A stretch of DNA of 64,000 nt from Escherichia phage vB_EcoM_WFL6982. Position numbers and translations under genes: made by a program. This document shows, in pieces, positions 19,579 through 48,393 of this stretch. Within the stretch, counting starts at the first letter, position 1. Each line of letters starts with the position of its first letter. A model generated the notes under the pieces. That model made no database searches, was not told the DNA's origin, and saw only the letters and a list, made by a program, of their open reading frames with translations. Location of the stretch: the sequence record MK373774.1. One strand, given 5' to 3'.

Positions 19579-19791
19579 CTATTTTAAACTTTTTCGAAAT
19601 TTGCGTTTTTCTTGACGAATCTGTCGTTTAGTCGGACGTACAGCAAATTTAACGAAGTCCACTTTGCCGTGTGGAAACTTTTCAGATGCTTCGCAGTCCA
19701 TCATTAGTTCCCATCCTTCCAGAATAAGAGCTTTCCATTGTGTAGTTGATGCAAATTCGTATGTTGATGGTTTAAACACAGTTGAATACAT
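19579..19791 (-). CDS. small protein with basic C-terminal RPTKRQ tail (family of three in window)
   Basis: start moved to internal ATG after dmd stop; C-terminus VRPTKRQIRQEKRKFRK shared with ORFs at 47592..47771 and 48196..48393. Confidence 0.45.
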   Translation of the reverse strand: MYSTVFKPSTYEFASTTQWKALILEGWELMMDCEASEKFPHGKVDFVKFAVRPTKRQIRQEKRKFRKSLK

Positions 19792-19792
19792 A

Positions 19793-19984
19793 TTATCCTC
19801 TGAAATCAGCTTCAAAAACTTTCTCGTCATTAATAAATGCTTTAACTAATGCATTGTTCACTTCAGCAAGTTGTACCGTAACCCACTCGATTTCTTCGCG
19901 ATCACCTGATAACATGATATCTTTAGTGAACATCTCACCGCTTTTAAACCAACCGATAAAAGTAACTTTAGTTAATTTGCTCAT
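19793..19984 (-). CDS. dmd: Dmd antitoxin (discriminator of mRNA degradation, inhibitor of RnlA/LsoA toxins)
   Basis: about 63 aa from ATG at 19984; FIGWFK..MFTK..AEVNxALVKAFIxDxKV pattern matches T4 Dmd as recalled. Confidence 0.75.
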   Translation of the reverse strand: MSKLTKVTFIGWFKSGEMFTKDIMLSGDREEIEWVTVQLAEVNNALVKAFINDEKVFEADFRG

Positions 19985-20298
19985 ATTTCCTCGCAAAATG
20001 CCCATTCAGCGTGATAAACTGTAGCGCCTTTAGTATCATTCATTTGAACTACATCTACCGGAGAAATTACTCGATAGAGACGTGGTTCACCTCCATAAGA
20101 GCGTGCTGCTCGTCCTGCATAAATCTTTGCTAAACCGATATCTTCAGTAAAGAATACACGATCCAAGTTTTTCTTACGTCCAGTTTCAGACAGAACTCCT
20201 GTTTCTTCAGGAGAACAAAGCATGTTTTCGATGTTAGCTGAACTACTTGAACCGTGATAAAAAATCTTAAATTCTGCTTTACAATCGATGGTTTTCAT
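19981..20298 (-). CDS. hypothetical protein
   Basis: 105-aa ORF with early promoter upstream. Confidence 0.5.
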   Translation of the reverse strand: MKTIDCKAEFKIFYHGSSSSANIENMLCSPEETGVLSETGRKKNLDRVFFTEDIGLAKIYAGRAARSYGGEPRLYRVISPVDVVQMNDTKGATVYHAEWAFCEEI

Positions 20299-47552: not shown

Positions 47553-47581
47553 AATAAACCCTTACCATATATAGATAAGGG

Positions 47582-47589
47582 TATTTATA
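47582..47589 (-). promoter_or_regulatory. late promoter (TATAAATA) upstream of gene 49
   Basis: plus-strand TATTTATA = TATAAATA on minus strand, about 30 nt upstream of gene 49 ATG; T4 gene 49 is known to have a late promoter. Confidence 0.5.
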
Positions 47590-47591
47590 AT

Positions 47592-47771
47592 TTAGTAAAC
47601 GTTATAAAAGTCTCGATGAAAACGTTTATACTGTCGAATCATTCTTTTAGTAGGACGTGTTACCGAAATGATTGAAGTCCTCATGTTCGGATTGTTTGGA
47701 GCCCCAATCATAATAAATTTCCAGGATTTTTGGCCGTTTGTTCTTTCGCCATAAAATAGTTCAGTTTTCAT
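47592..47771 (-). CDS. small protein with basic C-terminal RPTKR tail (family member)
   Basis: 59-aa ORF ending ..VTRPTKRMIRQYKRFHRDFY; not in ORF track. Confidence 0.4.
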   Translation of the reverse strand: MKTELFYGERTNGQKSWKFIMIGAPNNPNMRTSIISVTRPTKRMIRQYKRFHRDFYNVY

Positions 47772-47780
47772 AATAAACCT

Positions 47781-48194
47781 TTAACTTAAACGTCTTTCTA
47801 AATATTCAATGTATTCCGCTGCGGCTTGCATCAGATTACCTTCATAACCGTCATTATTTTCTTGGGCGGCTAATTTAGCTAAAGCATAAGAAATACGTTC
47901 ACCTTCGAATTCGCCAAGTCCACCATCACAAACTACTTGGTCAATTTCTTCGAGTTCATCTATTGAATGGGATTCCCAGAAGCACCAAAGAGAAGTATCA
48001 CGGTCATAGATGCAAAGTTTCTCACCTGTGTTCAACATCACTTCAATAATGCCATGGTCGCCATAACCATCTTCGGTAGTAGTACCAATTACCTTGATGA
48101 TCGTATCTTTCTTTAATTCAGGAAACTTGACTTGTAGTTCTTCATCTTCTTTAACAATCTTGAACCATTTACCGCGAGTTTCAGAAATATTCAT
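47781..48194 (-). CDS. hypothetical acidic protein
   Basis: about 137 aa from internal ATG (MNISETRGKWF..); ORF-track N-terminus overlaps upstream gene. Confidence 0.5.
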   Translation of the reverse strand: MNISETRGKWFKIVKEDEELQVKFPELKKDTIIKVIGTTTEDGYGDHGIIEVMLNTGEKLCIYDRDTSLWCFWESHSIDELEEIDQVVCDGGLGEFEGERISYALAKLAAQENNDGYEGNLMQAAAEYIEYLERRLS

Positions 48195-48195
48195 A

Positions 48196-48393
48196 TCAAT
48201 ATTCTCTATAAAAGTTACGATGAGAACGTTTAGCTTTGCGAAGCTGACGTTTAGTAGGACGAACTGTAAATGGTTGTCCAGAGAAAAAATTCGGATCGGT
48301 TTTAATAAGCAAATACCAATCATGCTTGCCATTTTTTAATAAACGGTACAATAATTTAACTTGCATAATAATCTCTTCCCATCTCCATATCAA
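48196..48393 (-). CDS. small protein with basic C-terminal RPTKRQ tail (family member)
   Basis: 65-aa ORF ending ..FTVRPTKRQLRKAKRSHRNFY. Confidence 0.4.
   Translation of the reverse strand: MIWRWEEIIMQVKLLYRLLKNGKHDWYLLIKTDPNFFSGQPFTVRPTKRQLRKAKRSHRNFYREY

Follow-up and report, generated by a model that had tools for sequence, protein, structure and literature searches.

Three small genes at two loci of an RB69-like phage

The window analyzed here, a 64,000-nt stretch of DNA from Escherichia phage vB_EcoM_WFL6982 (MK373774.1), matches bases 1-64000 of Escherichia phage vB_EcoM_WFK (MK373775.1) letter for letter, with coordinates unchanged. WFK is an RB69-like Mosigvirus (Tevenvirinae) with a genome of 164,590 nt. 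Three small ORFs in the window, all on the minus strand (hereafter, ORF1, ORF2, and ORF3), end with a shared basic motif, as had been predicted from the letters of the DNA. Six-frame translation of the window contains three occurrences of RPTKR..R, compared to none in each of 100 mononucleotide shuffles, and these lie at the predicted places. No fourth copy turned up in the part of the genome covered (164,000 of 164,590 nt), using a looser motif regular expression and a family HMM built from ORF1, ORF2, ORF3, and published TifA homologs. The motif is genuine, well above what chance would give, yet it is the known RNA-binding helix of a known protein family, TifA.

ORF1 (19579..19791, minus strand, 70 aa) is the second gene of a dmd-tifA pair in the 41-61 early region, with dmd directly before it, whereas ORF2 and ORF3 lie elsewhere, on either side of pin in the interval from nrdC to gene 49 (endonuclease VII). 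[quoted passage not shown] ORF1 codons R52-R66 (RPTKRQIRQEKRKFR; 19594..19638, minus strand) encode the Pro-Thr cap and the basic stripe of the C-terminal helix. Directly upstream of dmd is a 105-aa ORF (19981-20298, minus strand) that is a homolog of RB69ORF040c; it has no Pfam match, and T4 has no counterpart of it between 41 and dmd. Its position is included in a region that was described as a possible anti-TA island by Srikant et al. (PMC9391042).

At the second locus, ORF2 (WFK_00083; 47592..47771, minus strand, 59 aa), the ortholog of RB69ORF087c, lies between pin and gene 49 and is directly followed by a terminator-like hairpin (47558..47582, minus strand), which is a terminator in the source record too. 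Its basic helix motif (codons R39-R53, RPTKRMIRQYKRFHR; 47613..47657, minus strand) is inside a 55-nt direct repeat. The pin gene (47781..48194, minus strand) encodes PinA, the inhibitor of the host Lon protease, based on a Pfam Inhibitor_I24 match (E 3.5e-47) and the source-record annotation. Upstream of pin is ORF3 (WFK_00085; 48196..48366, minus strand, 56 aa), with its basic helix motif at codons R36-R50 (RPTKRQLRKAKRSHR; 48217..48261, minus strand) and a start that overlaps the end of the 49.1 homolog. The predicted coordinates were correct for ORF1 and ORF2, but probably not for the start of ORF3, which had been placed at a TTG at 48393. The start of ORF3 is most likely the ATG at 48366, because this is annotated in the source record, the orthologs begin with MQVKLL, and a Shine-Dalgarno-like stretch (GGGAAGAGA) precedes it. 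Shine-Dalgarno-like stretches precede all three starts. T4 gene 49.1 was considered as a counterpart of ORF3 and rejected, given that 49.1 corresponds to the neighboring WFK_00086.

Another gene of the nrdC-49 region, WFK_00087 (48495-48851, minus strand), has a C-terminus of about 50 residues (…EEYNRLQAIEELLWNIECDLPSGLESWIDYEELNKLRG) that closely resembles the 56-aa PP01_087. The RefSeq label of PP01_087 is 'antitoxin from a toxin-antitoxin system', and Pfam finds nothing. WFK_00087 may be another counter-defense candidate in this region.

ORF1 is near certainly TifA

The ORF1 protein is 100% identical to RB69 gp61.4/TifA and to JS09 gp61.4; its ortholog is annotated as gp61.4 in RB69. Judging from this identity, ORF1 is near certainly TifA itself. 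[quoted passage not shown] (2022, PMC9391042), who found that amplification of dmd-tifA lets T4 escape toxIN, a type III toxin-antitoxin system, with higher tifA copy number allowing T4 to beat plasmid-borne toxIN. In the same study, TifA rescued ToxN toxicity and co-precipitated with ToxN, and RB69 TifA was a more potent version than that of T4 (PMC9391042).

Guegler et al. (2023, PMC10853763) studied ToxN, an endoribonuclease, together with its inhibitor RB69 TifA, which binds 45- to 15-nt RNAs with a KD of 0.36-2.3 uM. Without ToxN, TifA still binds RNA, showing little preference for sequence, and RNA co-purifies with it; in the ToxN-TifA complex, 16S rRNA is enriched (PMC10853763). The predicted C-terminal helix of TifA has a conserved Pro-Thr cap and is lined with basic residues; both the P53A T54A and the K55A R56A R59A mutants lost RNA co-purification as well as ToxN neutralization (PMC10853763). 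By residue count, the motif of ORF1 (R52-P53-T54-K55-R56-Q57-I58-R59) is exactly this mutated RNA-binding element. Residue 41 is a documented determinant that tunes ToxN inhibition (PMC10853763), and ORF1 carries H41, the same as RB69 TifA. The suggestion that the tail binds nucleic acid or the ribosome is therefore correct for ORF1, as already demonstrated with the identical RB69 protein, its mutants, and the 16S rRNA enrichment (PMC10853763), and for ORF2 and ORF3 it would follow from residue conservation.

Six more distant TifA homologs neutralized 0 of 6 ToxN/TenpN toxins tried (PMC10853763). Because they were inactive against all of these toxins, membership of the Pfam family that covers TifA (DUF7279, see below) predicts neither a target nor an anti-toxin role. 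The published homolog set demanded full query coverage, and there are no sequences of the short type in the published test panel.

The three proteins as whole-domain paralogs

Beyond the tail, the three proteins were compared by profile searches, pairwise alignments, and, for ORF1 and ORF2, predicted structures. All three matched Pfam PF23945 (DUF7279; gathering cut-off 24.5 bits), with 72.1 bits for ORF1 (E 3.5e-20), 53.1 bits for ORF2 (E 3e-14), and 54.5 bits for ORF3 (E 1.1e-14). These matches extend from position 1 or 2 to position 52 or 53 of the 53 profile positions (ORF2: 2-53; ORF3: 1-53). DUF7279 was also matched by 11 of the 11 TifA homologs scanned (TifA of T4 and RB69, six further homologs from the published panel, and three relatives from databases), so that DUF7279 is, on profile evidence, the TifA family. 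In PHROGs, the family of ORF1 is phrog_2375 and that of both ORF2 and ORF3 is phrog_3272, and the two share cross-hits. PF23945, phrog_2375, and phrog_3272 are all still labeled 'unknown function', an annotation gap in which the link to TifA is unrecorded; NCBIfam gave no hit, and literature searches for DUF7279 returned nothing.

ORF2 and ORF3 share 37% identity from M1 to the last residue (E 1e-11) and have a subfamily-specific HRxFY ending, whereas their identity to TifA is about 30-34%. The ORF1-ORF2 alignment covers 39 residues, including the W-x-hydrophobic strand. Alignment of the short subfamily to the TifA homologs with hhalign resulted in a probability of 96.9% (E 1.5e-10) over 43 columns. 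Across ORF1-3 and the database relatives, M1, Y11, W27, R52, T54, K55, R59, K62, R63, and R66 are invariant, and P53 is nearly so. The cap and basic residues of ORF1 (P53, T54, K55, R56, R59) have their equivalents in ORF2 (P40, T41, K42, R43, R46) and ORF3 (P37, T38, K39, R40, R43), and the KRxxRxxKRxxR stripe is retained in full in both short proteins. ORF2 and ORF3 lack most of the segment aligned to TifA residues 7-24, and the loop aligned to TifA residue 41 (NNPNMRTS in ORF2, TDPNFFSG in ORF3) shows no similarity to EASEKFPHG of TifA.

The ORF2 model (AlphaFold2, mean pLDDT 88) contains three strands (residues 2-9, 15-22, and 31-36) followed by a helix (42-58). The ORF1 model (AlphaFold2, pLDDT 85) has the same order of elements (strands 2-6, 9-15, 18-23, 27-33, and 43-49; helix 55-69) with an extra, lower-confidence hairpin at residues 9-23, and is in line with how the literature describes TifA, a small sheet packed against a basic helix. 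A PDB sequence search with the TifA profile and a literature search identified no solved structure of the TifA family. Foldseek returned nothing at E <= 0.001 for the ORF2 model; the best BFVD matches were small proteins of T4-like phages (S16; Merlin, TM 0.83/0.90), and the best PDB match (E 0.63) was weakly dsRBD-like. Taken together, ORF1-3 are very probably whole-domain paralogs of one family, TifA/DUF7279, in which the shared helix would be the RNA-binding element. The TifA family and ORF1 are known, and what is new is the recognition of ORF2 and ORF3 as short members, paralogs that neither TifA paper mentions; the word 'paralog' is absent from both (PMC9391042, PMC10853763). For the labels ORF087c, ORF078c, and ORF089c, a literature name search led to a single paper, PMC8056088, in which 'ORF087c' occurs.

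These comparisons bear on two alternatives contained in the original prediction, which had regarded the N-terminal regions as unrelated. A portable basic tail or targeting signal appended to different modules would be in line with BLASTP of ORF1 against ORF3, which aligns only the 19-residue tail. However, the profile methods align nearly the whole proteins, ORF2 and ORF3 align end to end, and the order of predicted secondary structures is the same in the ORF1 and ORF2 models; with no sign of a localization signal, we regard this reading as very improbable and the N-terminal regions as related. Still less probable is that the motif derives from a repeated, untranslated nucleotide element, the small ORFs being chance reading frames. 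The 3' parts of ORF2 and ORF3 do constitute a 55-nt direct repeat (76% identity; 47603-47657 and 48207-48261) that brackets pin, but dN/dS was well below 1 in informative ortholog pairs (ORF2: 0.05-0.20; ORF3: 0.10-0.29). In the 15-codon core, the codons differ for 5/10, 5/10, and 2/9 of the identical residues in the three ORF pairs, and the arginine after Lys in the motif is CGA, AGA, and CGT in the three genes, which argues for conservation of the motif at the protein level. Furthermore, ORF2 orthologs from four genera are 51-60% identical in protein sequence with saturated synonymous sites, and the ORF1 product is a purified, characterized protein (PMC10853763). Given the low dN/dS and the different codons at conserved residues, all three ORFs appear to be translated genes under purifying selection. 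Literature searches, including one for RB69 expression data on these ORFs, turned up neither transcripts nor peptides of ORF2 or ORF3.

Distribution, decay, and recombination at the pin locus

Orthologs of ORF2 occupy the same slot between pin and gene 49 in Tequatrovirus PP01, Dhakavirus IME08, Gaprivervirus VR20, Mosigvirus SF, and RB69 (ORF087c). Using tblastn, an ORF2-type gene was found in at least 355 phage records, and ORF3 (at >= 80% identity) in at least 145 records, all of the Mosigvirus type. These counts are lower bounds and were not used for co-occurrence statistics; for example, TifA was counted in at least 68 records at >= 95% identity, compared to about 144 Mosigvirus records with a DNA match over the whole region (TifA of JS09 is the same as ORF1). 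The TifA and ORF2 hit lists overlap in several phages, including PYps14T, ZN18, and HY126, showing that co-occurrence of the two is common. At the T4 pin locus, to which this comparison refers, there is neither ORF2 nor ORF3, and this absence may be the reason that the T4-centered literature left them undiscussed.

In large protein databases, a search with the short-subfamily alignment identified 19 clusters of the short type at 90% identity. An exhaustive search of 1.84 billion representatives (50% clustering) with the whole-family profile found nine at E <= 0.001, one of which (P0023, 195 aa, repetitive) looks spurious. The TifA family is narrow, or its members are too short for detection further out. 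A word-indexed homolog search with ORF1 resulted in two clusters and missed T4 TifA, and is thus uninformative about family size.

Close relatives differ in whether they carry ORF2, ORF3, and pin, each of which is found in some and missing from others. In the RB69 reference (AY303349 48375-48535), ORF3 is frameshifted in a homopolymer (7 A, vs 6 A in WFK; window ~48330-48345) and the only annotation there is the truncated RB69ORF089c. ORF3 may be a genuine pseudogene in RB69, or the frameshift an error of sequencing; since RB69 carries it, that copy of ORF3 would be dispensable in the laboratory. Several database relatives of ORF2 (P0014, P0017, P0018, and P0019) are truncated forms of 30-45 aa, some with altered ends, which suggests repeated gene decay in some lineages, or assembly errors. 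Phages PECP20 and SHSML-52-1 contain a single chimeric gene that consists of the ORF3 body, the ORF2 ending (…NFY|NIY), and the ORF2 3' flank, with neither pin nor the ORF2 body. Because the junction of this chimera is within the shared ACTTTTATA and both pin and the ORF2 body are missing, recombination between the paralogs has deleted pin in nature.

Proposed mechanism and alternative roles

For ORF1, the mechanism is that shown in the literature for a protein of identical sequence (PMC9391042, PMC10853763). Shut-off of host transcription after infection leads to decay of toxI and the release of ToxN. The early-expressed TifA then binds RNA with the basic side of its C-terminal helix (PT-KRxxRxxKRxxR), which carries the Pro-Thr cap, and the surface formed by the beta-sheet and loop holds ToxN. 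In this way ToxN ends up in an inert ribonucleoprotein with abundant RNA, 16S rRNA in particular, with no turnover on phage transcripts, and ToxIN abortive infection is defeated.

ORF2 and ORF3 are predicted to adopt a shorter version of the TifA fold, with three beta-strands and the same helix. Because every residue that is needed for RNA binding in TifA is conserved in them, we infer that they are RNA-binding proteins that may tether or mask a protein partner on RNA. This partner would be a different one, given that the specificity-determining parts of TifA are missing or unrelated, and most likely a host RNase-type defense effector other than the ToxN variants covered by TifA. Their position around pin, patchy presence, frameshifts and truncations, and variable loop fit accessory counter-defense genes. 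We consider the chances of a counter-defense role against a different RNase effector to be about even.

Two other roles have to be weighed against this one, and we consider both unlikely. ORF2 and ORF3 could be general small RNA- or ribosome-binding proteins with no defense partner, such as modulators of early translation or mRNA stability, as is compatible with RNA binding by TifA alone (little sequence preference, co-purification with RNA without ToxN; PMC10853763) and with short paralogs that keep little besides the core sheet and helix. A housekeeping function fits poorly, however, with genes that are patchily distributed, are frameshifted or truncated in close relatives, and are both absent from the T4 pin locus. 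Somewhat more doubtful is a role as additional ToxN inhibitors, either as extra doses of TifA or tuned to ToxN alleles that escape it. Selection for more TifA-like activity is documented by the tifA copy number that T4 needs against plasmid-borne toxIN (PMC9391042), and the RNA-binding stripe is fully conserved; yet the short proteins have only about 30-34% identity to TifA, lack most of residues 7-24, and have a loop at TifA residue 41 that is unrelated in sequence, and the more distant TifA homologs inhibited no ToxN tested (PMC10853763).

Under the preferred reading, in which ORF2 and ORF3 act against a different RNase effector, a broader and more tentative possibility is that the short DUF7279 proteins and the Lon inhibitor Pin represent a second anti-toxin island in T-even phages. 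Each short protein would be an RNA tether with a different partner surface, directed at a different host RNase or RNA-targeting defense effector, and the island would be reshuffled by paralog recombination, of which the chimeras without pin would be natural examples.

Comparison with known systems

TifA (gp61.4 of T4 and RB69) and the short proteins have in common the Pfam domain, a W-containing central strand, the Pro-Thr cap, the KRxxRxxKRxxR stripe, and a predicted sheet-plus-helix fold. They differ in size (70-85 aa in TifA, 56-59 aa in ORF2 and ORF3), and the short proteins have the HRxFY ending, an unrelated middle loop, and pin beside them instead of dmd. The immediately upstream gene product of the tifA locus, Dmd (T4 gp61.5, the antitoxin for RnlA and LsoA), is likewise a small early phage protein that neutralizes a host RNase toxin, but belongs to an unrelated sequence family (Pfam Dmd). 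Dmd binds its toxin directly, without RNA.

In lambda N, HIV Rev, and Tat, a short basic helix also provides RNA affinity, whereas the helix of the TifA family is predicted to be packed on a small beta-sheet and would be no free peptide. The HIV Vif-RNA-APOBEC3 complex, in which RNA holds a viral antagonist and a restriction factor of the host together, is an analogy drawn by Guegler et al. for TifA (PMC10853763). None of these proteins (lambda N, Rev, Tat, Vif) has a sequence or fold relationship to the TifA family.

To a specialist the family will come as no surprise, and most of the finding follows from what is already known. Among phage counter-defense proteins, TifA is one of few known to trap a host nuclease on RNA rather than simply bind it, and many T-even phages have one or two extra, stripped-down TifA paralogs that are missing from the T4 pin locus. 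ORF2 and ORF3 are thus concrete, testable candidates for new anti-defense specificities and, as a putative natural minimal version of the TifA fold, are of use for structural work. For curation, DUF7279, phrog_2375, and phrog_3272 can be linked to TifA.
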